A stretch of DNA of 64,000 nucleotides from a virus (taxonomy: Duplodnaviria; Heunggongvirae; Uroviricota; Caudoviricetes), in the IMG/VR virus record IMGVR_UViG_3300047444_000299, positions 1 to 64,000 of that record; one strand, written 5' to 3'. Position numbers and translations under genes: made by a program. Shown piece after piece: positions 10,458 through 46,374 of the stretch. Below the pieces are notes generated by a model. That model was not told where the DNA came from. It was given only the letters and a program-made list of their open reading frames with translations, and ran no database searches. Every line of letters starts with the position of its first letter. The stretch's first letter is position 1.

Positions 10458-10789
10458 CCACACGAAGTCGTCTGGGGCCGATTGTAGATGAGCCCCGGAA
10501 AAAGTACCGGATCAAACTTGTACCCGGTGCTGATAAGTTGACGTTCAATCGCTTGGTGCGTTATGACCCGGTTGAAAACTATTATATCCCAATATATGAG
10601 ACGGTAACCATCCCAGATGGTGAAGTGATCGATTACTTCCTTACAGAAGACTCGGAATCAAATCCCGTGCATCTGTTCGCTCGTCAATTTGATACAAGGC
10701 TGTTTGTCTTGACTCAAGACGTGGTGGACGGTGCTGTACTGGAACCCGGTAAGGGTAATAACCAGCATTTATGGCTACAAGAAATTTAA
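10454..10789 (+). CDS. hypothetical protein
   Basis: 111 aa ORF, overlapping stop/start. Confidence 0.45.
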   Translation: MTTRSRLGPIVDEPRKKYRIKLVPGADKLTFNRLVRYDPVENYYIPIYETVTIPDGEVIDYFLTEDSESNPVHLFARQFDTRLFVLTQDVVDGAVLEPGKGNNQHLWLQEI

Positions 10790-10806
10790 TCAAATTCGGA
10801 GTTTGT

Positions 10807-11940
10807 ATGTCCACCAACCCATTCCAGCTTTATGATCAATTGATGCAATTGACCTTGATCGGTGATGCATTCTTCTTCAAAGACTTCCCAGCGGACGACC
10901 CGGAACGTATGTATCGGATCTTTAACTACCGACTGGCTAGCTATTCGGATTTCTGCAAACCCGGTGCGCTGGAATGTCGTGGAACGATGTTTCTGGTAGA
11001 TCGCAAAGGCAACTTTGACGATCTGGTTTGCCGACCACCGAAGAAATTTTTCAATCTGGGTGAAAACCCATTCACGATGGAATTGCCGCTGGATGATTTG
11101 GCAATGTGCATGGTCAAGGAAGACGGTTCGTTGATGTCTACCTACTTGCACACCAACGGCGAATTGCGTCTGAAATCGAAAGGTTCTACCGGATCGGTTC
11201 AATGTAATGATGCAATGGCGTTCCTCAAGACCCAACCGGCCCTGCTGGCGGATCTGCGGTTCCTCGCAGCCCGTGACTTTACGGTCAATCTGGAATGGTG
11301 CGCGCCGTGGAACCGTATCGTGGTTGGCTATCAGCAACCGAAACTGATCGGTCTGAGCATCATCGACAATCACACCGGTACTGTTTACGGACAAGACCTG
11401 ATTGATGATTTGGGTCTGGCTGGGGTTGACGATATCTGGGTTGAAGAATTCCAGTACACCGGCTTGTTGGCGGCTGCAATCAACAACCTGACAGGCACCG
11501 AAGGCGTTGTAGCCCTGACCAAACAAGGGGTTTACTTCAAAATGAAATGCCCGTGGTATCTGGCGTTGCACCGTAACAAGGACAACGTACAGAACACCAG
11601 AGCGTTGATCGAACTGATCCTTTCAGAACAGATTGATGACCTCAAGGTTCTGTTCTCGGACGACCCAGCGGTATTGAACAAAATCAATGCTTACGAAAAA
11701 AGTATCAGTTCTGTTTATAACCATACCTGTTCTGTGGTAGAATCATTTCATGACCGCAACAAGGATCTGTCTCAAAAAGACTACGCCATTGCTGCGAAGG
11801 CTGAATATTCCGATTGGGTGTTTAACATCCAAATGTCCAGATTTGTTGGGCGTGACTGGGAAACTCAGGCCAAAGAGTTCATGCAAAAGAACTATTCCAA
11901 TTATATCTTGAAAGAATTTGAGAGTTCGTCTGGTGAATAA
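10807..11940 (+). CDS. rnlA: RNA ligase 1 (T4 Rnl1 / gp63 family)
   Basis: strong similarity to T4 Rnl1 (YRIFNYRLASYSDFCKPGALECRGTMF, KFFNLGENPFTM, KEDGSL nucleotidyltransferase lysine motif); GGAG SD 7 nt upstream. Confidence 0.9.
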   Translation: MSTNPFQLYDQLMQLTLIGDAFFFKDFPADDPERMYRIFNYRLASYSDFCKPGALECRGTMFLVDRKGNFDDLVCRPPKKFFNLGENPFTMELPLDDLAMCMVKEDGSLMSTYLHTNGELRLKSKGSTGSVQCNDAMAFLKTQPALLADLRFLAARDFTVNLEWCAPWNRIVVGYQQPKLIGLSIIDNHTGTVYGQDLIDDLGLAGVDDIWVEEFQYTGLLAAAINNLTGTEGVVALTKQGVYFKMKCPWYLALHRNKDNVQNTRALIELILSEQIDDLKVLFSDDPAVLNKINAYEKSISSVYNHTCSVVESFHDRNKDLSQKDYAIAAKAEYSDWVFNIQMSRFVGRDWETQAKEFMQKNYSNYILKEFESSSGE

Positions 11941-12550
11941 ATTGATCGTCGGTGGCGGTATCTATGAAAAGGGTCGCCACGAAGCATGGGACGCTAAGAG
12001 TAAGCGGAACACCAAAGAATATGAAACTTGGTATGGGTTCCTCAAGCGGTGTTCGGCTGCCATCCAAGCCACTGGAAAATTCAAATCCTATGTGGGATGT
12101 TCGGTTCATCCAGATTTTATCAAATTCCAAGACTTCGCGGAATGGTGCCAACATCAAATCGGATTTGGTAATGACGGCTGGGCATTGGATAAGGATATTC
12201 TGGTGCGGGGTAACAAGGTCTACGGACCTGATACCTGTGTGTTTGTGCCATCGGAATTGAATAGTCTGTTGACCCATGTACAGTCAACCAAAGGGGATCT
12301 ACCAACCGGTGTTTCTATAAAACCTATACGGGTTCCGAAATACAAGACCGATTATGATAAAACCCCAGTTTACAAGGCTCAAATTATGATCAGTGGGGCG
12401 GTGACATTCCTTGGATATTTTGATACCCCAGAAGCCGCCGAAGCTGTTTATAAAGTGGCCAAAACCAAAGAAATTCGTAGACGGGCTGAACTTGTGAAAG
12501 ATCAAATTGACCCACGGGCGTATAACGCATTGATGAATTATGTAGTTTAA
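11933..12550 (+). CDS. homing-endonuclease-like protein (degenerate HNH-like core + AP2 DNA-binding domain)
   Basis: GIYEKG..YxxW...FQDFAEW..WALDKDIL..YGPDTCVFVPSELN core and C-terminal AP2-like YKAQIMISGAVTFLGYFDTPEAAEAVY; non-ATG start; paralog at 45811. Confidence 0.5.
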   Translation: MNKLIVGGGIYEKGRHEAWDAKSKRNTKEYETWYGFLKRCSAAIQATGKFKSYVGCSVHPDFIKFQDFAEWCQHQIGFGNDGWALDKDILVRGNKVYGPDTCVFVPSELNSLLTHVQSTKGDLPTGVSIKPIRVPKYKTDYDKTPVYKAQIMISGAVTFLGYFDTPEAAEAVYKVAKTKEIRRRAELVKDQIDPRAYNALMNYVV

Positions 12551-12558
12551 GGAATATT

Positions 12559-13425
12559 GTGAGTAAATTAGTATTGACAATCGGGGTTCCCGGAAGTGGG
12601 AAGTCTACCCTTGCGCATAAATTTGTGTCGCAAGGGTATGTACAGGTCGAGCGAGACTTGTTGCGTAAAAAGTTCTACGGAACTTGGTATTCAAAAGGTG
12701 TTGATGAAAAACGCATCACCCACGCTCATGAAGAATTAATTCGTAATGCTTTGCGTAGTAACCTGAATGTATTTGTATCAGATACAAACATCAATCCAGT
12801 TACCCGCGAACATTTGATCAAATTTGGATCTAGCCTTGGTGCTGAAATCCAGTTGATCCACGTTGCACCTTACATGCTGCTTGATGATTTGATCCAACGC
12901 AATGCAAATCGCGATGATCAAACTAAAGTGGTTCCTGTAGGTGTGATGCAGCAAATGTATACCAGTTATCGGGAACAGTTTCCGATCATGGCCCCGGCTT
13001 ATGATTCATTGAAACAAGATGCGTTCTTGTTTGATTTGGATGGTACGGTTGCGGAAATGAATGGGATTCGCGGACCATTTGATTGGAAAAAGGTTGGAAT
13101 GGACGATGCACATTCTGATGTGATTGAAGTCTTGAAAGCTCTTGAAGTTGCTGGTAACAAACTGATCGGTGTATCTGGTCGGGATGAAGTATGCCGAGCT
13201 GAAACTATGGAATGGTTGCTGAAACACAATCTCCCAGAACATGGGCTGTGTATGCGCCCAACCGGATCGCAAATCAAAGATTCTGCTGTAAAACATGATT
13301 TGTATCATCGTTACATCGCACCGTATTACAACGTAAAAGGTGTCTTTGATGATAGGACACAAGTTGTAAAAACGTGGCGTAGCATGGGACTCCGGTGTTA
13401 CCAATGTGCCCCCGGCGACTTTTGA
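12559..13425 (+). CDS. pseT: polynucleotide 5'-kinase/3'-phosphatase (T4 PseT family)
   Basis: P-loop GVPGSGKST, HAD phosphatase motif FLFDLDGTVAEMNG, C-terminal WRSMGLRCYQCAPGDF nearly identical in pattern to T4 Pnk. Confidence 0.9.
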   Translation: MSKLVLTIGVPGSGKSTLAHKFVSQGYVQVERDLLRKKFYGTWYSKGVDEKRITHAHEELIRNALRSNLNVFVSDTNINPVTREHLIKFGSSLGAEIQLIHVAPYMLLDDLIQRNANRDDQTKVVPVGVMQQMYTSYREQFPIMAPAYDSLKQDAFLFDLDGTVAEMNGIRGPFDWKKVGMDDAHSDVIEVLKALEVAGNKLIGVSGRDEVCRAETMEWLLKHNLPEHGLCMRPTGSQIKDSAVKHDLYHRYIAPYYNVKGVFDDRTQVVKTWRSMGLRCYQCAPGDF

Positions 13426-13495: not shown

Positions 13496-14197
13496 ATGAA
13501 CGAACATTATTGCTTATATCAAATTACAAACCTAATCAACGGTAAGATTTATGTTGGCGTCCACAAGACTGCTGACCCGCTAGATGGATATTTAGGATCT
13601 GGCCCATTAATACGAAAGGCTGTCGCGAAATATGGTCGTGAAAATTTCAGAAAAGATATTCTGGAAACTTATGAGGATTATGAATCCTTAAATCGCGCAG
13701 AAGCTGAAATCGTAACCAGAGAATTTATTGAACGTCCTGATACATATAACCTTGATTTGGGTGGTCGTGGTGGGAAGATTTTTACCGAAGATATGAAATC
13801 AAAAATTTCACAGTCTCAAAAAGATAGGTTTAAATCGAACCCAGACGCATGGAACACAGACATACGCCGCGTGGCTCAACGTAAGTATTTGGATTCCTTA
13901 ACCAAAGAAGATTATATAAGGATGTTTAGCAAACCGGGTGAATCAAATCCTATGTATGGGATTCCATGTCATTACAAAATGACAGATTCTGAGCGAGCTA
14001 ATTGGGCTGCCAATATTTCCGCTGCCAATAAAGGCAAGAAGCGAACCGATGCGCAAAAACAGAATTATTCTGACTACGCCAAACAGCGTTTTTGGATTGT
14101 GAATCAAAATGGTACGTGCGCTCATTGTCTGGATATTAATGATCCACGATTACTGGGTGGTGAATGGCAACGTGGTAAAAAGTGGAAAACTGTATGA
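13496..14197 (+). CDS. GIY-YIG homing endonuclease (Seg/I-TevI-like) with NUMOD3 repeats
   Basis: N-terminal YCLYQITNLINGKIYVGVH...GYLGSG (GIY-YIG), NUMOD3-like SERANWAANISAANKGKK. Confidence 0.8.
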   Translation: MNEHYCLYQITNLINGKIYVGVHKTADPLDGYLGSGPLIRKAVAKYGRENFRKDILETYEDYESLNRAEAEIVTREFIERPDTYNLDLGGRGGKIFTEDMKSKISQSQKDRFKSNPDAWNTDIRRVAQRKYLDSLTKEDYIRMFSKPGESNPMYGIPCHYKMTDSERANWAANISAANKGKKRTDAQKQNYSDYAKQRFWIVNQNGTCAHCLDINDPRLLGGEWQRGKKWKTV

Positions 14198-14778: not shown

Positions 14779-15822
14779 GTGAGCGAATTTGTTAAATATT
14801 CTTCCATCGAAAACTCTTACCAGCAACGTTTCCTCGACAAATGCGCTATGCATGTCGGGGATGCACAGATGGTTGCGGTGGAGAAAATCCACGGTGCCAA
14901 CTTTTCGTGGATTGCTGACGGGACATCTGTTCGGGTAGCCAGTCGTAACGATTTGATCGATGAATTGGAAACCTTCTACGGCCATACCCGGTTCTTCAAT
15001 CGGTACACACCGGTTGTAAAAGCTCTGTATGGTCTGGCTAAGAACGAGTTCCCCGGATTGGTTCAAATCAATCTGTTCGGTGAAATTTTCGGTGGTCGGT
15101 ATAATGGCGAATGCGCTCAGTCTGCCAAGAAAGTTCAAGATGGTGTGAACTACCATCCTGATAACGAATTCATGGCATTTGACCTGAAACTGACATTCGA
15201 TACCGGTGTGAGCCGTTATGTTCCATTCGTGGACTTGATCGATCTGCTATTTGATGCAAACTTCATCGCTCGGTTGCCGTTCGCAGACCGTATGCGTCAT
15301 GCGCCGGTTATCAAAATTGGTACTCTGGAAGAACTGATCAAAATTGATCCATTGTTCTATACCCACGTACCACAAGCATACGGACTCGAAACTGAATACC
15401 GTGAAAAGACTCCACTTGACTACGCGGAAGGTTTTGTGATCTGCGGGTATGAAGAAGACTTCTACATCGGCAACGAGCGTGTGATTCTGAAACAGAAAAA
15501 CGCCTTGTACGGTGAAAAAGTTAAAGAAGTCAAGATCAAATCGGCGGTGAACCTGTCGGAAGCCCAACAAGCCCTGCTGGATAAGGTTTGTTCGTACATG
15601 AACGAGAACCGCGTAAATGCAGTTCTATCAAAAGGTGTGTATGACCAGAAGTCGTTCGGCAGGCTGCAAGGCGATTTCACCCGTGATGCACTGGAAGACT
15701 TCGAGAAAGACGAGGGCTACCGGGCACAGGACTCCGAAGAATGGAATGTTCTGGGTAAACGTGTCGGTTCCCATGCGGCTCAGGTAATCAAGCCGGTTTG
15801 GATCAATCTCGATTTTTCGTAA
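14779..15822 (+). CDS. rnlB: RNA ligase 2 (T4 Rnl2 / gp24.1 family)
   Basis: N-terminus KYSSIENSY..VAVEKIHGANFS matches the Rnl2 KxHGxN adenylyltransferase motif; GTG start. Confidence 0.85.
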   Translation: MSEFVKYSSIENSYQQRFLDKCAMHVGDAQMVAVEKIHGANFSWIADGTSVRVASRNDLIDELETFYGHTRFFNRYTPVVKALYGLAKNEFPGLVQINLFGEIFGGRYNGECAQSAKKVQDGVNYHPDNEFMAFDLKLTFDTGVSRYVPFVDLIDLLFDANFIARLPFADRMRHAPVIKIGTLEELIKIDPLFYTHVPQAYGLETEYREKTPLDYAEGFVICGYEEDFYIGNERVILKQKNALYGEKVKEVKIKSAVNLSEAQQALLDKVCSYMNENRVNAVLSKGVYDQKSFGRLQGDFTRDALEDFEKDEGYRAQDSEEWNVLGKRVGSHAAQVIKPVWINLDFS

Positions 15823-16400: not shown

Positions 16401-16424
16401 GGCCACACATTGAGGGGATCAAGC

Positions 16425-17495
16425 GTGAGCAAAGTTAAAAAGTACGACCTAGCGGTTTTTATCGGGCGAATGGCACCACTGCATAATGCCCATCTGGAAA
16501 ACATTCAATTGGCAGATTCGATTGCTGATCGCGTTGTTGTGATTCTCGGCGGTGCTAACGCTCCGCGTGATGAACGAAATCCATTCAGTAACCAAGACCG
16601 TTCTCGAATGGTCGAAGCTGCAACCAGTGAAGCCGGGATCAAAGGTGTTGGCCTAGCCTTCATCAATGACAACCCATCCGATGATTTGTGGGCCGCTGAA
16701 ATCATGCGTCTGGCAAATCGTTACATTATGGGCATAGAGGCTCCGCGAATCGCAATCGTTGGGCACAAGAAAGATGATAGTTCATTCTATCTCGATTTGT
16801 TCCCAACGTGGGAATTCGTAGAAACCGGCGCAAAGATGCATGGCGACGAAGAAATGGCGGCAACATCAATCCGCAAACTGATGTTTGAGGATAATTTCGA
16901 ACCTGCCATGTACATGATGCCAGCATCTGTATACAACTACGTCAATTACGAATTCATCGGCTCCCCAGAGTATGATGCAATCCGTGAAGAATACATGTTC
17001 CACCAAGCTTACCCAGCAAAACGCCGTGCGTCTTACCCGATCAACGACGTTACCGCTGATGCTGTTGTTCTGTGCAAAAGCCACATCCTGTTGATTCGCC
17101 GTAAAAACATTCCCGGTAAAGGCAAACTGGCCCTACCCGGTGGATTCGTCAACACCAACGAAACGGTTGAAGACGGCGCGATTCGTGAACTGGATGAAGA
17201 AACAAAACTGCATGTACCTGAAAAGGTGTTGCGCAAGTCGATCATTGACGAAAAGCGGTTCGATAATCCGAAACGTTCCCTTCGCGGTCGGCTGATGACC
17301 TTCGCATTTACTTTCAAGATTGATACAAATCATGACGGTAGCTTGCCACGGGTTTACGGTTCCGATGACGCTGATAAGGCGTTCTGGGTTCCAATCTCGG
17401 ATATCTCGGCCCCTGAAAACGCGGCTGACTTTTTCGAAGACCACCACAACATCATCATGACCATGATCGGTCGTGCTGCGAAACAACAAAACTAA
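16425..17495 (+). CDS. natV: bifunctional NMN adenylyltransferase / Nudix hydrolase (NatV-like)
   Basis: N-terminal cytidylyltransferase motif (LAVFIGRMAPLHNAH), C-terminal Nudix box (GGFVNTNETVEDGAIRELDEET); GTG start with GAGGGGA SD. Confidence 0.85.
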   Translation: MSKVKKYDLAVFIGRMAPLHNAHLENIQLADSIADRVVVILGGANAPRDERNPFSNQDRSRMVEAATSEAGIKGVGLAFINDNPSDDLWAAEIMRLANRYIMGIEAPRIAIVGHKKDDSSFYLDLFPTWEFVETGAKMHGDEEMAATSIRKLMFEDNFEPAMYMMPASVYNYVNYEFIGSPEYDAIREEYMFHQAYPAKRRASYPINDVTADAVVLCKSHILLIRRKNIPGKGKLALPGGFVNTNETVEDGAIRELDEETKLHVPEKVLRKSIIDEKRFDNPKRSLRGRLMTFAFTFKIDTNHDGSLPRVYGSDDADKAFWVPISDISAPENAADFFEDHHNIIMTMIGRAAKQQN

Positions 17496-17520
17496 TTCAA
17501 TTTTCGAGGAGTTCGAAAGA

Positions 17521-19014
17521 ATGACAGCTTTCAATACAGAGTTTAACAAAGACAACGCAATCCTGATGGATTTCAACCCGGATAACCTGATCCTGAAATC
17601 CGATTCATACAAAGGTGGTCACTGGGAAATGCTCCCGGCTGGCGCTCAGTACCTGTATTCCTACGGGGAATCGCGTGGATCTGATCAATACGCTGTACGT
17701 GGTGTCAACGAAGGTTACACCTACACAGTTTTCCACGGTCTGCAAGGTATTCTGAAACGTCACTTCTCTAGTCGCCTGACTATGAAAGATGTTGATGAAG
17801 CCGAAGAACTGGTAGAGCTGCATATGGGACCGGGCGTTTTCAACCGTAAAGGTTGGGAACAGATTGTTACCCAGTTCAAAGGTAAACTGCCACTGCGTAT
17901 CCGCTGCCTGAAAGAAGGTACGGTTGTTCCTACCGGCAACGTTCTGTGGACTGTTGAAAACACCCACCCGGACTTTGCATGGTTGGTTTCGTACTTCGAA
18001 CCGCTGTTCCTGCAAGCGTGGTATCCAATTACGGTTGCTTCTGTTTCGTACAGCATCCGTCAAGTGGTAGAACAAGCTTTCCGTCAGTCGGTTGACGAAG
18101 GTGTTGGTAGCCAATTCAAGCTTCACGATTTCGGCTATCGCGGTGTATCCAGTAACGAATCGGCCCGTATTGGTGGTGCTGCTCACTTGGTGGCCGGTTG
18201 GATGGGTAGCGATACCATTCAGGCTGTTATCGAACTGAAAATGCACTACGGCGTGAAGAAAGGCGAAATGCCTGCCTTCTCGGTTCGTGCAACGGAACAC
18301 AGTGTTGTGTGTGCAAACTCCAACGCTGACACCCGCGACGATTCCAACGCTCTGGAAATGGCGATCCAACTGCTGGAGAAACACAAGGGCATCGTAGCCT
18401 GTGTGGGTGATACCTATAGCATTCGCCGTTTCGCGGAATGGTGTGCAACCGATCCGATCAAAACCCGAATCATCAATTCCGGTGGTACGTTTGTACTGCG
18501 CCCAGACTCTGGCAACCCGCTGGAAATTCCGGTCGAAATCATCGGTATCCTGATGGCTGGGTTTGGTTACACCGTGAACAGCAAAGGCTACAAAGTCCTG
18601 CCGAGCTGCATCCGAGTTCTGCAAGGCGACGGTATCAACGAATCCAGCATTCGTGGCATCTACGACAATATGTTCAAAAAGTCGCGTATGTACTCTGCTG
18701 ATAACATCGTTTTCGGTATGGGCGGCGCCCTGCTGCAACACTGCGACCGTGATTGGCTCAAATTTGCCATGAAAGCGGCTGCACTGTGCAAAAACGGCAT
18801 CTGGACTGACCTGTTCAAAGACCCGGACACCGATTCAGTTAAACGGTCGAAGAAAGGTCGAGTGACCACGTTCAAAGATTCGAGTGGGAAATACTTCTCG
18901 GATCGTATCGAACTGCAAGAAACCAATCACACAATCGTTGACCAACTGGTTACGGTGTGGGAAGACGGCGACCACATTATGCAGTGGGCGTTTAGCGAAA
19001 TCCGCATCCCGTAA
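17521..19014 (+). CDS. nadV: nicotinamide phosphoribosyltransferase (NAMPT, NadV-like)
   Basis: NAMPT motifs (LKSDSYKGGHW, FGYRGVSS, GSDT); 498 aa; GAGGAG SD. Confidence 0.9.
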   Translation: MTAFNTEFNKDNAILMDFNPDNLILKSDSYKGGHWEMLPAGAQYLYSYGESRGSDQYAVRGVNEGYTYTVFHGLQGILKRHFSSRLTMKDVDEAEELVELHMGPGVFNRKGWEQIVTQFKGKLPLRIRCLKEGTVVPTGNVLWTVENTHPDFAWLVSYFEPLFLQAWYPITVASVSYSIRQVVEQAFRQSVDEGVGSQFKLHDFGYRGVSSNESARIGGAAHLVAGWMGSDTIQAVIELKMHYGVKKGEMPAFSVRATEHSVVCANSNADTRDDSNALEMAIQLLEKHKGIVACVGDTYSIRRFAEWCATDPIKTRIINSGGTFVLRPDSGNPLEIPVEIIGILMAGFGYTVNSKGYKVLPSCIRVLQGDGINESSIRGIYDNMFKKSRMYSADNIVFGMGGALLQHCDRDWLKFAMKAAALCKNGIWTDLFKDPDTDSVKRSKKGRVTTFKDSSGKYFSDRIELQETNHTIVDQLVTVWEDGDHIMQWAFSEIRIP

Positions 19015-20688: not shown

Positions 20689-22071
20689 ATGACCACAAAC
20701 AAAACAAAGGATAGATTAGTGAGCAGTATTCTCGGATTTGAAGTAAACAAGAAACTCGGTTGGATGGCTGGTGTCGCAGTCGCCGCTCTGTTGTTCGTTT
20801 GGCTCATGTTTAGCAGCATGTTCTATTACAACAGCGCTGGCTACATCACTCAGGTTCAAACCAAGTTCCCAACTCAGGGTGAAAAGGTTGTTAGCACTAC
20901 AGGTTACACCTACATCGGTTTCGGTACGGTAACCCCGTGGCCCCGTCAGATGTCGGTTCAATCTGTTCTGGATACATCGACATTGCCGAAAGGTGACTTC
21001 GACGGATTGGGTTCTTCTCTGATTCCAGCCTTCGGCGTAACGTTCCTTGGTGGTGTGGTTGCCACGGTTGATGCAAACGTTCGTGTGGCCCTGCCAGAAG
21101 GTGAAACCTTCCTGCAACTGGCTCGAACCTACCGCACCCCGGACAACTTTGTTCTGCAATCGATCATGCCGGTAATGAAATCTACGCTGCAATCGACTGC
21201 CCAGTTGATGACCGCCGATGATTACTACAACGGACGTTCGACTGAATTCCGTCAGAGCTTTCAAGATCAAATCACCGATGGTTCGTATGTTGTGAGCCGC
21301 GTTGAAAAACAAGTCAAGAACACCCGTGCTGCGGCTCAAGGTGCAATCGTACAGAATGGTACAGCTCAAGGTGAATTCGGCGGCGACACCACTACTGTTG
21401 TGACCACCGAAAAGGTACTCGACCCAAAATCCGGTCTGCCGATTCGTCTGGAACGTCAGTTCTCGAAACTCGGTGTAACCGTAGCCGATGCGAACATTTT
21501 GAACATCGATCCGTCGCCTCAGTTCAAAGAGCGTATGAAAGCGGTTCAACAGTCGCAAGCTGATTTGTCTATTGCTCGCCAAGGTCGTCAGACTGCCGAC
21601 GAACAAAAGAAATTGGTTACCGCCAAGGGTGAAATGGAAGTTGAGCAGAAACGCCAAACTACCATGAAAGATCAGGTTGAACGTACCACCAACGCCGAAA
21701 CCGAAAAGCAATTGGCACTGACCAATGCTAATCGTGAGCAGGAAAAGGCTTCGATTGAGAAAGCAACTTCTCAGATCAAATACGAACAAGCCCAGATTGA
21801 TGCAAAGACCACCAAAGAGAAAGCCGAAGCCGAGGCGTATGCCAAGAAAGCGGTAATCATGGCGGATGGTGCTTTGACTCAGAAACTGGCGGCGCGTGTT
21901 GAAATCGAAAAGGTTTGGGCTAACGCATTCGAACATGCCAAGGTTCCACAACTGGTTATGGGTGGTTCTGGTGATGGCACTGGTCGTCAATCCGATGCAC
22001 AAACCCTGCAACAACTGGTAGGTATCAAAGCTGCGAAAGACCTCATGCTGGATATGAAAGTCTCTCAATAA
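20689..22071 (+). CDS. SPFH/band-7 (flotillin/HflKC-like) membrane protein with long C-terminal coiled coil
   Basis: N-terminal TM helix; SPFH-like core; Ala/Glu/Lys/Gln-rich coiled coil; alternative GTG start at 20720 has a better SD. Confidence 0.65.
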   Translation: MTTNKTKDRLVSSILGFEVNKKLGWMAGVAVAALLFVWLMFSSMFYYNSAGYITQVQTKFPTQGEKVVSTTGYTYIGFGTVTPWPRQMSVQSVLDTSTLPKGDFDGLGSSLIPAFGVTFLGGVVATVDANVRVALPEGETFLQLARTYRTPDNFVLQSIMPVMKSTLQSTAQLMTADDYYNGRSTEFRQSFQDQITDGSYVVSRVEKQVKNTRAAAQGAIVQNGTAQGEFGGDTTTVVTTEKVLDPKSGLPIRLERQFSKLGVTVADANILNIDPSPQFKERMKAVQQSQADLSIARQGRQTADEQKKLVTAKGEMEVEQKRQTTMKDQVERTTNAETEKQLALTNANREQEKASIEKATSQIKYEQAQIDAKTTKEKAEAEAYAKKAVIMADGALTQKLAARVEIEKVWANAFEHAKVPQLVMGGSGDGTGRQSDAQTLQQLVGIKAAKDLMLDMKVSQ

Positions 22072-22113: not shown

Positions 22114-22386
22114 ATGAAAAAGATCCCAAATTTGTTTCTAAAAGGTTTCGCCTCGGTACGTGCTAATGACGGTTTCCAATTTGGTGTAACCGGTCACAGT
22201 ACGATGATCGTCAAGCGACGTTTCACCGAAAACTTCAAATCGCATTACACCAAGTTCGATGATCAAACCGATTATATTCTGGTTCAACCTGTCAACCCGG
22301 TGGCCCTGAAAGGCTTCTTGAATGACATGAAAGGCACCAACGTAAGCGGCGACGAGCTGATTCGTCTTTTGATGGAACAGCTTTGA
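22114..22386 (+). CDS. hypothetical protein
   Basis: ATG immediately after the terminator; 90 aa. Confidence 0.45.
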   Translation: MKKIPNLFLKGFASVRANDGFQFGVTGHSTMIVKRRFTENFKSHYTKFDDQTDYILVQPVNPVALKGFLNDMKGTNVSGDELIRLLMEQL

Positions 22387-22979
22387 TCGTCACCGGTATT
22401 GGCTCTAGGGATATTGATGCAATCCAATTTGAGATTTGTCAGAAAGTCGCTAGAGTCTTCGCTAATAAAGGCTGGCATTTGCGGTCTGGTGGTGCTAGAG
22501 GCGCGGATAGTGCTTGGGAATTGGGATTTTCCGAATCTGATCGAAAGACAATCTATCTCCCAGAACCAAATTTCAACGGTCGCCCTAATACCGGGTGTTA
22601 TAAAGTCCCTGATACATTCGGGGATGTTTGGTTCGAAGCCCGCGAAATAGCAAGCCGACTTCATACCCGATTTGATCAACTCGATGAATTTGGACAGAAC
22701 GCCCATACCCGCAACGTGTTTCAGGTATTAGGTGACGACCTCAAGTCAAAAGCTGATTTGGTCGTCGTGTGTGCCCCACCAAGAGGCAAAACGGTCAAGG
22801 GTGGTACGGCTACAGCGTTCAATCTTGCAAAGGGCTTGAGAATCACCACATTCAATCTCTGGGAGCCCCAAGATCGGGAAGCCCTTTATAAAATCTACGC
22901 ACAGGAATTGATGCATGAACTCGCTCAGCGTTCCAACACCGGTCACGATCTTTTCGCAGCGTGTGTTGATTCACCTTAA
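22383..22979 (+). CDS. SLOG/DprA-like Rossmann-fold protein (standalone)
   Basis: GIGSRD...GWHLRSGGARGADSAWELG...TIYLPEP...VVVCAPP pattern typical of DprA/LOG/SLOG domains. Confidence 0.55.
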   Translation: MIVTGIGSRDIDAIQFEICQKVARVFANKGWHLRSGGARGADSAWELGFSESDRKTIYLPEPNFNGRPNTGCYKVPDTFGDVWFEAREIASRLHTRFDQLDEFGQNAHTRNVFQVLGDDLKSKADLVVVCAPPRGKTVKGGTATAFNLAKGLRITTFNLWEPQDREALYKIYAQELMHELAQRSNTGHDLFAACVDSP

Positions 22980-23571: not shown

Positions 23572-23579
23572 GGTATTTG

Positions 23580-23939
23580 ATGAAAAGTCAAAAAGGCAAT
23601 TCGGCGGTTGAATTACTGATCTACGGCGCAATTCTGATGGTGATCCTGTTGTTTGGCGGTGCCAAAGCGATTCTGTATCTGGCTACCGGCAATGATGTGG
23701 TTGTCACTGTGTCCGACAAGGGCGAACGCTGTAAGTCGGTCGGCAACTGCACGTACCTGATTTATACCGATCATGGCACATTCGAGAACCGAGATTCGTG
23801 GTTGAATTGGAAATTCAATTCGTCCGACATCTACGGCGATATCAAGCGTGATACCAAGTATCAGTTCCATACCAATGGTATTCGCGTACCGTTCCTGAGC
23901 TGGTATCCAAACATTTCTAAGGTACAGGAAGTCAAGTAA
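23580..23939 (+). CDS. hypothetical membrane-anchored/secreted protein
   Basis: N-terminal hydrophobic segment (AVELLIYGAILMVILLFGGA). Confidence 0.45.
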   Translation: MKSQKGNSAVELLIYGAILMVILLFGGAKAILYLATGNDVVVTVSDKGERCKSVGNCTYLIYTDHGTFENRDSWLNWKFNSSDIYGDIKRDTKYQFHTNGIRVPFLSWYPNISKVQEVK

Positions 23940-24421
23940 TGGGAACACTTCTGGGTGGTATTTTCGCAGTCGCCGCATTGGCACATCAATTTGATGTGGA
24001 CAAGGGTGGTAAGGCATACATCCTGCATTGCATTACCGTAATGCAGAATGCTCAAAAGATGGGCGTTACCAGCGAAGTCAGTCTTGCACTCGCGGCTTGC
24101 CATGATGTCAAGGAAGACCACCCGGAACTGCTTCAACATTTATTGATTCATGCCAAAGCCCACGGTGTCATTGACGAATTCGAATCTGGTCTGGATTTAC
24201 TGACCCGGCGCCCTGATGAATCCTATGAGGATTTCATCAAACGCATTATCGCATCGGGCAGGATCGACATTATTCGGATTAAAAAGGCCGATCTTAAACA
24301 CAACTCCTGCATTACAAGGCTCAAGGGCGTGCGTCCTAGCGATATCGCTAGGATTCAGACCTACCACAAAGCTTGGATGGAATTGGAGAACACGGAAAAA
24401 AATCTGAATGTTGTTATCTGA
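23939..24421 (+). CDS. HD-domain phosphohydrolase, SpoT/Mesh1-like small alarmone hydrolase candidate
   Basis: H...LALAACHDVKED motif equals the RelA/SpoT hydrolase LLHDVVED signature; 160 aa, the size of SAH enzymes. Confidence 0.6.
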   Translation: MGTLLGGIFAVAALAHQFDVDKGGKAYILHCITVMQNAQKMGVTSEVSLALAACHDVKEDHPELLQHLLIHAKAHGVIDEFESGLDLLTRRPDESYEDFIKRIIASGRIDIIRIKKADLKHNSCITRLKGVRPSDIARIQTYHKAWMELENTEKNLNVVI

Positions 24422-24632: not shown

Positions 24633-25466
24633 ATGGGCGCAGTTGCGGCAGTTGCAGATATGGGTTGTGCAGAAAGTGTTTGCATTTCCTTTGCAGGTGG
24701 TGTAGTCAAATTTGGTCCGTCCTACGACGATCTGGTACATCAAGCAGTCGATGATGTCAAGGTCATCCAAGGGGATGTCCGCAACCTTCCGAAGAATTTG
24801 ATTAAAATCTTCGACAAGTATGCAACCAAGCAATCGCTCGGCAGCGAGTTTACTCCCTGCGATGATGTCGGAGATAGTGGGTACGACATCGAATTTATCT
24901 CCGAAGTGTTGGGTAAGTGCTTTATTTTCATCGGGAATGGCTCGTTCGCGGAGGTTTTCAGCATCGACCCTGAATGGGTGCTGAAAGTCAACTGCCATGA
25001 CAACTTTCATTCGCCGGTTGACGGTGGGTTTGGGTGGATGAAGACCTGCACCAAGCATCAAGGGAACCCGTACATTCCTAACCTTTCATCGATTGAACAG
25101 CGTGGACATCTGTACATCGCTGTGGTAGAGCATCTGCATTTGGGTGTTGGCCTGTCGTTTGAGGATGGTTCGCTGGGTGACCTGTCAGAAGAATCCTATA
25201 GCCCTGACTTTGATGTAAACCTGTACATGGACGAAGCTGAATTTACATTCGGCCAGTTCATCAAACACAGCCCAAAAGATGCAATTGAAGCAGCTCGGGT
25301 TTACGAATCACATCGTAAAGATGTACGCGGCTGTGATGACATCAGCCGGGACAATGTTATGCACCGGGGCGGGTTTCCGGTACTGACAGACCCGATCTGT
25401 GATACAGGTAGTGGCTATACGCAATTGGAACAAGGCTCGTCGTTTTCATGGATGTCGAAAAACTGA
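24633..25466 (+). CDS. protein-kinase-fold protein 1 (APH/ePK-like)
   Basis: Gly-rich loop IGNGSFAEVF, VLKV lysine, catalytic DDISRDN, metal-binding LTDPI. Confidence 0.5.
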   Translation: MGAVAAVADMGCAESVCISFAGGVVKFGPSYDDLVHQAVDDVKVIQGDVRNLPKNLIKIFDKYATKQSLGSEFTPCDDVGDSGYDIEFISEVLGKCFIFIGNGSFAEVFSIDPEWVLKVNCHDNFHSPVDGGFGWMKTCTKHQGNPYIPNLSSIEQRGHLYIAVVEHLHLGVGLSFEDGSLGDLSEESYSPDFDVNLYMDEAEFTFGQFIKHSPKDAIEAARVYESHRKDVRGCDDISRDNVMHRGGFPVLTDPICDTGSGYTQLEQGSSFSWMSKN

Positions 25467-26059
25467 TTGATTGTCTAATTACTGGTGATTTGCAGGGGGC
25501 ATTCCAACATGCTCCCCGCGTTTTCCACGAAACCCTAGAGCTGCAACGCTTGATGCCGGTGGGTTGGAAATATCACGGAACAGGGTTCTACTCGTCGGTG
25601 ATTGGGCAAATTGATTCTGATAAGGTGTTCAAGCTGTCGTGGAAAGGGTCCGATCCTTGGATTCAGTACGCGGAGCATGTAACCCGGCATATGGATTTAA
25701 ATCCATTGATGCCGAAAATTTATAATCTGGTTGTAGATGATGGTCGAGCAATTGCCTGTATGGAACGGCTCTATGAGTCTGAAATCGTTCATAGTGTTGG
25801 TATGTCGAATGTTGTAAAACTCTGTAGAAATCAATGGTTTAGCAATCAGTTTAAAACTCTGAATGCCAAGCGAAAGAAAATTGCAGATTTTTTGCGATAT
25901 CAGTTTGACATGCGCGGGAACCGGAATTACAATACAAACAACCTAGCAGATATTGTGATTTGGATGGCTGGGTTACCGGATGCGAAAGTGGATTGTCACG
26001 GGTCAAACTGGATGATTCGCACCACCGGACAACTCGTTCTTACCGATCCAATTGGATAA
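25448..26059 (+). CDS. protein-kinase-fold protein 2 (paralog of upstream gene)
   Basis: HGTGFYSSVI G-loop, VFKL lysine, catalytic VDCHGSNWMI (HxDxxxxN), LVLTDPI. Confidence 0.5.
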   Translation: MDVEKLIDCLITGDLQGAFQHAPRVFHETLELQRLMPVGWKYHGTGFYSSVIGQIDSDKVFKLSWKGSDPWIQYAEHVTRHMDLNPLMPKIYNLVVDDGRAIACMERLYESEIVHSVGMSNVVKLCRNQWFSNQFKTLNAKRKKIADFLRYQFDMRGNRNYNTNNLADIVIWMAGLPDAKVDCHGSNWMIRTTGQLVLTDPIG

Positions 26060-26467: not shown

Positions 26468-26487
26468 TACAACCCAACCCCTCAAAG

Positions 26488-26510
26488 GGCGGCGTTAGCC
26501 GCCTTTTTTA
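26488..26510 (+). terminator. rho-independent terminator
   Basis: GGCGGC-GTTA-GCCGCC + TTTTTT. Confidence 0.8.
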
Positions 26511-42588: not shown

Positions 42589-42947
42589 TGGAAAGAACAC
42601 AAATCGCCCTAGCGGATAAAATCCGTGAATGGGAATTGAGCGCTGGGGAAAGCTTTACCGACTATTACATGCACGATTCTGTAAAGGATGTATCGTGGGC
42701 GTTTTGGTTGCTGGGGAAAGGTTTCACCGAACGAGCCAATGAATTGATCGATTTGATTCAAGCCGGTGAAACATGCATCGATCAAGAGTTGCTGTATGAG
42801 ATTTATCCACAAGATATCACCGAGGGTGAATCTAGTTGGGATTCGGATATACATTCCGCGAATATCTGTTTGTGGGCTGAATTTCTGGTAGCGTCTGATC
42901 GGTATTGGAAAGACATTACCGAATGGTTCGCAGATCAAAATGATTGA
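42585..42947 (+). CDS. hypothetical acidic protein
   Basis: 120 aa. Confidence 0.45.
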   Translation: MMERTQIALADKIREWELSAGESFTDYYMHDSVKDVSWAFWLLGKGFTERANELIDLIQAGETCIDQELLYEIYPQDITEGESSWDSDIHSANICLWAEFLVASDRYWKDITEWFADQND

Positions 42948-43413
42948 AATCGAACGCAAATTCCTAATTGATGCAACCATGTTGCCGGGATGCTTAACCC
43001 CAACCCGAATCGCCCAAGGCTATTTGAATCAAGATCCTGACAAGACCGTCAGGATTCGGATCGCCGGGGATAAAGGATTCATTACCATCAAAGGTAAATC
43101 CAGCGACAACGGCCTATCCCGGTACGAATGGGAAAAGGAAATTGATCTAAACGACGCCAAAGACTTGTTGGGAATGTGTTCCAATATCATCGACAAGTCC
43201 CGGTATCATATGATTCATCAAGGCAAGCTCTGGGAAATTGATGTATTCCACGGCTTGAACGAAGGATTGGTTGTCGCAGAAATTGAGTTGACTTCCGAAA
43301 CAGAATTGTTTAATTTACCGGAATGGATTACCCAAGAGGTTACGGGCAACCCAGATTACTACAATTCGAATTTAGCTGTATGTCCCTTTAAGTGGTGGTT
43401 TGAGTATGAATAA
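42940..43413 (+). CDS. CYTH-domain protein (triphosphate tunnel metalloenzyme; CyaB/ThTPase-like)
   Basis: N-terminal MIEIERKFLI (ExExK signature), later VAEIEL. Confidence 0.6.
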   Translation: MIEIERKFLIDATMLPGCLTPTRIAQGYLNQDPDKTVRIRIAGDKGFITIKGKSSDNGLSRYEWEKEIDLNDAKDLLGMCSNIIDKSRYHMIHQGKLWEIDVFHGLNEGLVVAEIELTSETELFNLPEWITQEVTGNPDYYNSNLAVCPFKWWFEYE

Positions 43414-45656: not shown

Positions 45657-45814
45657 TCAAAATCGAAGACTGGATTCTAGAAGACATCCGAAGACTCCGT
45701 AAAATCCCCCAGCCATCCAGAAGCTCCGACGAGCATCAATACTTAAAGCTGTTGATGGAATACAACAATAAGGTTGAAGAATTCAATATCAGGCTTCGGC
45801 GGTTGAAGAAATGA
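45653..45814 (+). CDS. hypothetical small protein
   Basis: 53 aa. Confidence 0.3.
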   Translation: MIKIEDWILEDIRRLRKIPQPSRSSDEHQYLKLLMEYNNKVEEFNIRLRRLKK

Positions 45815-46374
45815 AGAAAGTGGCTGGTATCGGTATATACGAAAAGGGTAAGTACCCTGCATCAATTACATTGAATGGTGAAACCACCCAAACCAAGGCG
45901 TATAAGGATTGGGTCAATCTATGTAGTTTCTGTGGGTCTGAATCCTACCTGACCCAGAGTCCGTCGTATGTCGGTAAAATCCTTGACCAGCAATGGATCA
46001 AATTCCAAGACTTCGCGGAATGGCATTCAGAGAATCATAGGGAAGGGTGGGTATTATCCACCAGTTGTTCCAATTTGATTGGCCCTGATACCAGCTTTTT
46101 TGTCCCTAGGGAAGTGATGCAATTCATCAATCCCCGAAAGAAACCTATGGTCGTGACCAAAACCCATGTCAAGTTGTCCATGACCCTACAAGGGGTTGAA
46201 TGTACATTCGGGAAATATCGAAACATCCCGGACGCCATGATGGTCTATAGCGGACTGTTTCTGGTAGAGATTACCAGATTGATTAAAGAATATGCCCTAT
46301 CTGAATGGTTGGGCGGCAAGTTGAAAACATTAGCAAACACCACACCGAATATCCGGTATGCGAAAAATATCTAA
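45811..46374 (+). CDS. homing-endonuclease-like protein (paralog of 11933..12550 core, without AP2)
   Basis: GIYEKGKY...YKDW...SYVG...FQDFAEW...IGPDTSFFVPREV shared with the rnlA-pseT intergenic gene. Confidence 0.45.
   Translation: MKKVAGIGIYEKGKYPASITLNGETTQTKAYKDWVNLCSFCGSESYLTQSPSYVGKILDQQWIKFQDFAEWHSENHREGWVLSTSCSNLIGPDTSFFVPREVMQFINPRKKPMVVTKTHVKLSMTLQGVECTFGKYRNIPDAMMVYSGLFLVEITRLIKEYALSEWLGGKLKTLANTTPNIRYAKNI

Follow-up and report, generated by a model that had tools for sequence, protein, structure and literature searches.

The stretch of DNA analysed here, called the window, comprises positions 1 to 64,000 of the IMG/VR virus record IMGVR_UViG_3300047444_000299 (Caudoviricetes). 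On its plus strand, an open reading frame (ORF) of 160 amino acids (aa) codes for a predicted single-domain small alarmone hydrolase (SAH) of the Aph1/PbcSpo family (23939..24421 including the stop codon, +; ORF listing and matches to PDB structures, profiles and folds). Below, this protein is called the SAH. The ORF starts with ATG. A Shine-Dalgarno-like AGGAAG can be read directly from the letters 7 nt before the start codon (23926..23931, +). The ATG overlaps the TAA stop codon of the preceding gene (TAATG), which suggests translational coupling of the two genes. The preceding gene (23577..23939, +) codes for a 120-aa protein with a hydrophobic N-terminus and a match to the ‘secreted protein’ family phrog_301 (1.8e-20). 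The same overlap, between an upstream ORF of 113–122 aa and an SAH orthologue, is present in two other loci (L003 and L004) and in the Pseudomonas phage Astolliot.

The gene is real and conserved. An identical protein has been recorded in assembled metagenomes, where the longest contig with it has 183,070 bp, and nine relatives of equal length share 74–88% identity with the SAH. Close homologues of 160 aa all align with it from residue 1. A search of 1.84 billion cluster representatives found 3,983 relatives at E ≤ 1e-3 and 400 at E ≤ 1e-10. At E ≤ 1e-30, there was one cluster, that of the SAH itself. Judged by these matches, the SAH is a divergent branch of a large family. It consists of one hydrolase domain, without synthetase, TGS or ACT domains.

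Residues were compared in an alignment of the SAH with 119 homologues and Aph1, the adenosine 3′-pyrophosphohydrolase 1 of Bacteroides caccae (PDB 7SMG; Ahmad et al., PNAS 2023, PMC10083569); invariance was read from a 71-sequence alignment. The full catalytic set of a RelA/SpoT-type hydrolase is present: H30, H55-D56, E59-D60, D118 and N122. H30 (24026..24028, +) is the first metal-binding histidine. It corresponds to Aph1 H33, aligns with the Rel/SpoT histidine and is invariant in the 119 homologues and in the 71-sequence alignment. H55-D56 (24101..24106, +) is the HD motif (Aph1 H53-D54), which is invariant in the homologues. In Aph1, mutation of the HD motif abolishes protection (PMC10083569). 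E59-D60 (24113..24118, +; Aph1 E57-D58) is the ED dyad of RelA/SpoT homologues (RSH). It is invariant in the 71-sequence alignment and aligns with the ED of Aph1, of the Acinetobacter baumannii SpoT and of the Mycobacterium tuberculosis Rel. The codons for D118-L-K-H121-N122 (24290..24304, +) correspond to Aph1 D110…D113-N114 and to the Rel motif ‘ADRLHN’. They provide the last metal ligand and the ribose-contacting asparagine, and D118 and N122 are invariant. Aph1 N114 has been equated with TtRel N150 (PMC10083569). Positions invariant in the 71-sequence alignment are D21, G24, Y27, H30, H55, D56, E59, D60, K115, D118, N122, R127, L128 and Y142.

The family placement was taken from PDB, PHROGs and profile searches because Pfam and NCBIfam are nearly blind on the single sequence. 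With the SAH alone as query, the best phmmer match in the PDB was 7SMG, named ‘(p)ppApp hydrolase’, over the full length (E 5.9e-15). The next chains were RSH hydrolase domains with E values of 2.6e-4 or weaker. A profile of 71 homologues scored 150.8 bits on 7SMG (E 2.2e-43) and at most 58 bits on all chains of Rel/SpoT, MESH1, PaSAH and RelH. The similarity to 7SMG is thus well above chance level. In PHROGs, the SAH matched phrog_990, ‘metal-dependent phosphohydrolase’ (1.1e-28). NCBIfam yielded a weak match of the SAH alone to the SpoT hydrolase region (9.7e-7). Pfam HD_4 (PF13328) was matched by 55 of the 71 homologues at E ≤ 0.01 (best 8.2e-8), and many database relatives of the SAH carry a precomputed PF13328 assignment. 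Matches to the generic Pfam HD family (PF01966) were weak and confined to 13 of the 71 homologues.

A sequence-only reading of this DNA had placed a 160-aa ORF with a RelA/SpoT/Mesh1-type HD domain at 23939–24421. The ORF listing gives the same coordinates on the plus strand, and every significant match to a solved structure is an RSH-type (p)ppNpp hydrolase. Of the motif it described, LHCI (residues 29–32) and AACHDVKEDHPE (residues 52–63) are present; the spacing between them is 19 aa, not the 29 aa given. It had named assignment to a different HD subfamily by profile search as grounds for rejection. This search was run; the significant PDB matches of the SAH, whether by sequence, profile or fold, include no dNTPase or cyclic-nucleotide phosphodiesterase.

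An AlphaFold2 model of the SAH on the 71-sequence alignment reached a pLDDT of 95.2 and a pTM of 0.91. The predicted structure is an all-helical single domain with eight main helices and one 4-residue turn. It keeps the compact eight-helix fold and lacks helices 0 and 9, which (p)ppGpp hydrolases have. A Foldseek search of the model against the PDB had the 7SMG chains A–D at the top, with template modelling (TM) scores of 0.83–0.88 (target-normalised), a root-mean-square deviation (rmsd) of 2.3–2.4 Å and 31–32% identity. Other SAHs followed with TM scores of 0.55–0.64 and an rmsd of 4.4–7.7 Å, among them MESH1-type structures with a TM score of ~0.62 and 19% identity.

The Aph1 family was defined by an iterative search with the C-terminal 53 residues (Y90-E143), avoiding the HD motif (PMC10083569). 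Residues 96–160 of the SAH alone matched only 7SMG in the PDB, at residues 90–142 (E 0.012). A profile of 27 C-terminal segments also hit only 7SMG (2.7e-15); no other RSH hydrolase appeared at E ≤ 10. It is near certain that the SAH belongs to the Aph1 family within the RSH hydrolase superfamily. Long PHROG profiles (374 and 413 positions) had hinted at an extra N-terminal domain, an idea that was dropped: nearly all homologues have 138–177 aa. The few long homologues are tandem duplications or fusions. P0122, P0125, P0130 and P0255 are family members of 319–441 aa. P0122, P0130 and P0255 have two HD..ED motifs, indicating a tandem hydrolase duplication, and P0125 has one HD motif and four matched stretches. 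Domain duplication probably explains the long PHROG profiles.

Six signature residues of Aph1 have been described: D24, R96, D116, R119, K133 and Y134 (PMC10083569). Four of the six are kept in the SAH, including both experimentally validated specificity residues. D21 (23999..24001, +) corresponds to Aph1 D24, a determinant of adenine specificity. It is an aspartate in 119 of 119 homologues and in 113 of the 115 motif matches among representatives clustered at 50% identity. SpoT and Rel, as (p)ppGpp hydrolases, have an arginine at this position. R127 (24317..24319, +) is the second specificity determinant, Aph1 R119, and varies neither in the 119 homologues nor in the 71-sequence alignment. 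The Aph1 double mutant D24R/R119A gains ppGpp hydrolysis (PMC10083569). R102 (24242..24244, +) corresponds to the signature residue R96 and is an arginine in 71 of the 119 homologues. Y142 (24362..24364, +) is the equivalent of Y134, the proposed pyrophosphate contact, and is invariant in the 119 homologues. According to the alignment with Aph1, the signature residues D116 and K133 are not kept; their places are taken by C124 (24308..24310, +) and T141 (24359..24361, +).

The lost positions vary in the family to different degrees. Among the motif-matching 50%-cluster representatives, about one fifth have a residue other than aspartate at Aph1 position 116, and ~5% have a cysteine. The orthologues of the Pseudomonas phages Milchi and Astolliot have a serine. 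Aph1 position 133 is a lysine in 107 of the 119 homologues, and threonine, valine or alanine are restricted to the closest clade of the SAH. The SAH of Salmonella phage PVP-SE1, gp220, lacks R96. Because position 116 varies family-wide and gp220 has no R96, the Aph1 signature is a consensus rather than an invariant set. At Aph1 positions 113 to 116, the majority of 50%-clustered representatives read H-N-x-D, as in gp220; Aph1 itself reads D-N-x-D. A division into two subtypes by positions 113/116 (D/D versus H/C) was considered and dropped. It was mostly a sampling artefact of a 5-mer prefilter; among the 50%-clustered representatives, H/D is commonest and H/C accounts for ~5%.

With moderate confidence, we read the SAH as an adenosine 3′-pyrophosphohydrolase of the Aph1/PbcSpo type, with which a T4-like phage would disarm toxic small alarmone synthetases (toxSAS) of its host. 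From the residue pattern, a preference for adenosine substrates of the (p)ppApp type is probable. By analogy with assayed relatives, the counter-defence role is plausible. Aph1 is a monofunctional (p)ppApp hydrolase, a compact eight-helix tetramer that is active with Mg2+ or Mn2+, and ppApp was hydrolysed by 12 of 12 purified Aph1 homologues (PMC10083569). The SAH would hold a metal, Mg2+ or Mn2+, with H30, H55, D56 and D118. Metal and the E59-D60 dyad would activate a water molecule for cleavage of the 3′-pyrophosphate from adenosine-based substrates. The pair of Asp21 and Arg127 would select adenine over guanine. The SAH is expected to act on ppApp and pppApp; analogy with related SAHs suggests the 3′-pyrophosphorylated A76 of tRNA CCA ends as a further substrate. 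An adenosine-specific 3′-pyrophosphohydrolase may plausibly serve alarmone and tRNA substrates because the modified tRNA residue is the 3′-terminal adenosine of the CCA end. As a product of the early/accessory region, the SAH would work catalytically and independently of the toxin, in the manner of a ‘type IV antitoxin’. It would reverse the products of FaRel-, CapRel- and PhRel-type abortive-infection synthetases of the host and keep ATP pools and translation available to the phage.

A precedent for such a role exists. Two stand-alone phage SAHs were tested by Jimmy et al. (PNAS 2020, PMC7229694). The PbcSpo enzyme of PVP-SE1 neutralised CapRel, PhRel2, FaRel2, PhRel and FaRel, that is, all five toxSAS toxins (PMC7229694, Table 1). 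The PVP-SE1 genome has one gene of this family, gp220 (YP_004894027). As the sole family member in that genome, gp220 is presumably the construct that was assayed. Its identity is 34.7% to the SAH and 39.7% to Aph1. The probable PbcSpo membership of the SAH is based on the identity to gp220, classed as PbcSpo by Jimmy et al. From these similarities, ‘PbcSpo’, a name of the Atkinson/Hauryliuk nomenclature, and ‘Aph1 family’ appear to be largely one clade under two names. ATfaRel, the SAH antitoxin of the FaRel operon of Cellulomonas marina, is also a PbcSpo enzyme (PMC7229694; bioRxiv 10.1101/2021.04.30.441581). It restored the aminoacylation of CCA-pyrophosphorylated tRNA in vitro (bioRxiv 10.1101/2021.04.30.441581).

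The literature on these enzymes also bears on what the sequence-only reading had proposed for the function. Its suggestion that a phage SAH could neutralise toxSAS gains weight from the similarity to the PVP-SE1 enzyme. It had left the substrate as (p)ppGpp or (p)ppApp. Of these, (p)ppApp and adenosine 3′-pyrophosphates are favoured. A blunting of the stringent response is the less likely half because the SAH is Aph1-like, with an aspartate where (p)ppGpp hydrolases have an arginine. Its description of phage SAHs as rarely characterised was overstated, as family members including one from a phage have already been assayed. It had named Mn2+ as the metal; Aph1 is active with Mg2+ as well (PMC10083569).

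Several points weigh against this interpretation. The adenine specificity is less certain than for canonical members because two of the six signature residues, D116 and K133 near the base pocket, are replaced by C124 and T141. Of the 12 Aph homologues assayed, two showed some, modest activity on ppGpp (PMC10083569). For the SAH alone, Pfam HD_4 gave no match at E ≤ 1, and no HD family was found in Pfam. A host toxSAS as the target of the counter-defence is hypothetical. In the literature found, phage SAHs were tested by heterologous co-expression, none during infection. The window shows 64 kb of a genome of ~183 kb, about one third, and the search for a synthetase covers this part.

The lost signature residues allow for a variant of the proposed function. 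The Otagovirus-like clade, with cysteine or serine at Aph1 position 116 and threonine, valine or lysine at position 133, could be a distinct branch that prefers the tRNA CCA 3′-pyrophosphate, or both purine alarmones, over free (p)ppApp. We regard this as possible, but doubtful. If a preference for tRNA ends were true, the SAH would be a third, dedicated tRNA-end repair enzyme beside the polynucleotide kinase (PNK) and the RNA ligases encoded ~10 kb upstream, aimed at CapRel-type defences.

A SpoT/MESH1-like (p)ppGpp hydrolase is unlikely. Such an enzyme would lower the (p)ppGpp level of the host, prevent or reverse the stringent response and sustain transcription and translation for the phage. 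The SAH has the full catalytic set of the RSH superfamily and a histidine at the ‘HN’ position, as in Rel and SpoT. The two non-canonical signature positions beside the base pocket and the modest ppGpp activity of two Aph homologues point in the same direction. But histidine at Aph1 position 113 is the majority within the Aph1-like family and hence not a Rel-specific mark. The guanine-stacking arginine of Rel and SpoT is replaced by Asp21, and Arg127 is kept; in Aph1, both residues had to be mutated for ppGpp hydrolysis (PMC10083569). The low profile scores on every (p)ppGpp hydrolase structure, far below that on Aph1, and a C-terminal segment that matches none of these enzymes also speak against this function.

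The predicted adenosine 3′-pyrophosphohydrolase is encoded in the early/accessory region of a T4-like phage, with nearly all genes on the plus strand. Identified genes include a UvsX C-terminal fragment, a gp41-like helicase, a primase and both topoisomerase II subunits. Upstream of the SAH are repair and salvage genes for PNK, Rnl1, Rnl2, NAMPT and NMNAT/NUDIX. The other identified genes code for a metallophosphoesterase, an SPFH protein, a DprA-like/SLOG protein, the small membrane/secreted protein, the SAH and two gp0.7-type kinase-like proteins. The T4-type replication and repair genes point to a lytic T4-like phage. At the DNA level, this phage has no close sequenced relative: a megablast search of 5 kb around the SAH against 50,697 phage records had no match. 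The large subunit of topoisomerase II shares 74–75% identity only with the Pseudomonas phages Astolliot (genus Otagovirus) and Milchi, and at most 46% with others. The phage is Otagovirus-like, with a genome of ~183 kb, and probably infects Pseudomonas. SAH orthologues with 42–49% identity are present in Milchi, Astolliot and a 183-kb metagenomic contig. All three share a conserved block in the order NAMPT, metallophosphoesterase, SPFH, DprA-like, two further genes, SAH and kinase-like. The Astolliot orthologue is annotated merely as ‘hypothetical protein’. Remoter homologues are located in unrelated small-ORF regions of other large phages. Among the 50,697 phage records, 177 contained a homologue of the SAH, 541 one of gp220 and 2,255 one of the topoisomerase II large subunit. 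Such a patchy occurrence is in keeping with an accessory gene.

The SAH is an orphan, without a partner synthetase in the scanned ORFs and flanks. No RSH synthetase domain (PF04607) was found in the 58 window ORFs scanned, nor within 8–10 kb of the SAH gene in the exact-match contig or in relatives. These scans weaken another explanation, by which the SAH confers self-immunity against a phage-borne (p)ppApp synthetase toxin and protects the producing cell instead of countering host defence. This is the exact role of the closest characterised relative, Aph1, whose gene adjoins that of the toxin MuF-Apk2 in a Bacteroides prophage (PMC10083569). Carriers of homologues include temperate phages of Streptococcus, and the window holds only the aforementioned third of the genome. 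Still, the explanation is quite improbable. The other identified window genes are of the T4 replication and repair type, and no MuF-type toxin was seen in the window. The annotations of the syntenic regions in Milchi and Astolliot name no synthetase, though most genes there are ‘hypothetical protein’. Family-wide, 4 of 1,181 Aph homologues (0.4%) were near MuF genes (Ahmad et al., PMC10083569).

That the SAH acts on another 2′- or 3′-phosphorylated adenosine compound, such as NADPH, 3′-phosphoadenosine 5′-phosphosulfate (PAPS), pAp or similar, maybe linked to the nearby NAD+ salvage, is very improbable: MESH1 complexes with NADPH and PAPS were among the Foldseek matches, MESH1 is reported to be an NADPH phosphatase (cited in bioRxiv 10.1101/2021.04.30.441581), an orphan Xanthomonas SAH is described as metabolically promiscuous (PMC9765508), and the conserved block has NAMPT and NMNAT/NUDIX genes ~5 kb upstream of the SAH, but the MESH1-type structures are a much poorer match than Aph1, all assayed Aph1-family members hydrolyse ppApp (PMC10083569) and the gene is unlinked to NAD genes in other phages, for example PVP-SE1.

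Upstream of the gene for the putative adenosine 3′-pyrophosphohydrolase, several gene sets were recognised. A bifunctional NMNAT/NUDIX gene (16410–17495, +) matched phrog_395 (2.1e-63) and the Pfam families CTP_transf_like and NUDIX. The NAMPT gene (17473–19014, +; phrog_448, 6.4e-138) forms a two-gene NAD+ salvage pair with it. The pair is kept in Milchi, Astolliot and metagenomic relatives. It resembles the phage pathways described for reconstitution of NAD+, by which NAD-depleting defences are countered. Genes for an Rnl1-like RNA ligase (10771–11940, +), a pseT-like PNK (12559–13425, +) and an Rnl2-like RNA ligase (14779–15822, +) lie within 5 kb. They constitute the T4 tRNA-repair toolkit, ~10 kb upstream of the SAH. 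A GIY-YIG SegE-like homing endonuclease gene (13496–14197) is located between the PNK and Rnl2 genes. No tRNA genes were found in the 64-kb window.

The SPFH/Band-7 protein (20689–22071, +) has 460 aa and matches Pfam (6.9e-9) and phrog_11908 (5.8e-70). It is 64% identical in Milchi, an unusually high conservation for the accessory block. The DprA-like/SLOG protein (22383–22979, +) matches phrog_768 (1.3e-53) and, weakly, the Pfam family DNA_processg_A. Weak PADLOC matches to the DprA-like antitoxins PsyrA (4.4e-6) and ShosA (8.6e-3) suggest that it might be a phage antitoxin mimic. Its gene is located two to three genes upstream of the SAH in all Otagovirus-like relatives. PADLOC found no match for the SAH or its immediate neighbours.

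Directly downstream of the SAH are two adjacent kinase-like ORFs (24633–25466 and 25448–26059, +). They matched phrog_15752, the T7 gp0.7-type protein kinase, with 3.3e-4 and 1.3e-12; neither had a Pfam match. Milchi and Astolliot carry an equivalent pair. A relation of the two ORFs as paralogues was rejected, as they hardly resemble one another (BLASTP E 0.38). The strongest downstream terminator-like hairpin has a 10-bp stem followed by a T-run (26484..26507, +; consensus match only). It may mark the end of a transcription unit to which the SAH and both kinase-like genes belong. Nowhere in the 64 kb does the T4 late-promoter motif TATAAATA occur; about two occurrences are expected by chance. 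A scan for sigma-70-like promoters was uninformative, with fewer sites than in shuffled sequence.

From ~27 to 64 kb, over half of the window, ORFs are short and nearly all are without a detectable family match. An exception is a CYTH-domain protein of 157 aa (42940–43413, +; Pfam PF01928, 1.5e-11) of the triphosphate tunnel metalloenzyme family, a further nucleotide-polyphosphate-acting enzyme in the accessory region; PADLOC had no match for it. Two paralogous ORFs (11918–12550 and 45811–46374, +) are 34 kb apart and share 34.5% identity over 113 aa (E 2.8e-15). Both contain an ‘(I)KFQDFAEW’ motif and have no Pfam match. They may belong to a dispersed family of mobile or homing-type genes.

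Toxic alarmone synthetases such as CapRel, FaRel and PhRel have an established role as effectors against phages. That phage hydrolases catalytically reverse the products of these synthetases has been proposed and, in the literature found, shown by heterologous co-expression only. Published work already covers this family, with its structure and specificity determinants, and the neutralisation of toxSAS by a phage member; the SAH reveals no new kind of system. Its contribution is a divergent and well-supported orphan case, kept by a small group of T4-like Pseudomonas phages. Its natural substitutions at two base-pocket positions would be informative on the discrimination between adenine and guanine by Aph-type enzymes. 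Two phages of this group, Milchi and Astolliot, are cultured and would be well suited to studying the proposed counter-defence role in a real infection.

Among known hydrolases, Rel/SpoT, MESH1, PaSAH and RelH are much weaker matches of the SAH than Aph1. It shares with them the fold of the HD_4 superfamily and the H…HD…ED…D…N constellation. They differ by an arginine at the position of D21, another C-terminal segment and at least nine helices. They hydrolyse (p)ppGpp, and some also (p)ppApp. SAHMex-like (p)ppApp hydrolases have their own signature (F21, D98, D99, L102, P103, K108, Q111, S119, W145 and Y153) and are closer to MESH1 than to Aph1 (PMC10083569). The SAH, by contrast, resembles Aph1 far more than MESH1 in the fold search.

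ATfaRel shares the subfamily with gp220 according to its authors. It is a catalytic type IV antitoxin that degrades (pp)pApp and strips the 3′-pyrophosphate from tRNA, as proposed for the SAH. Unlike the SAH, ATfaRel has its toxin encoded in cis, as part of one toxin–antitoxin operon of a bacterium. PVP-SE1 gp220 is, like the SAH, a stand-alone enzyme of a large lytic myovirus without an adjacent synthetase. Both have the equivalents of D24, R119 and Y134 and the histidine of the ‘HN’ position. Gp220 keeps D116 and K133 but has a glycine at R96; the SAH has the reverse pattern (C124, T141, R102). Gp220 stems from the Vequintavirinae lineage and has another neighbourhood, downstream of a ‘thymidylate kinase’ gene.

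The closest known enzyme is Aph1. In a temperate phage, its gene lies beside that of its cognate toxin, the (p)ppApp synthetase MuF-Apk2; the SAH is an orphan in a T4-like genome of lytic type. The SAH is longer (160 versus 143 aa), with two 4-residue insertions and a longer last helix, and has H121 for D113 besides the substitutions of D116 and K133. Aph1 is the best match of the SAH in sequence, profile and fold, with ~35% identity over 141 residues. Both share the metal and catalytic residues, the equivalents of D24, R96, R119 and Y134 and the family-defining C-terminal segment. In the predicted structure, the SAH also has the compact eight-helix single domain of Aph1, without the extra C-terminal helix of other SAHs.

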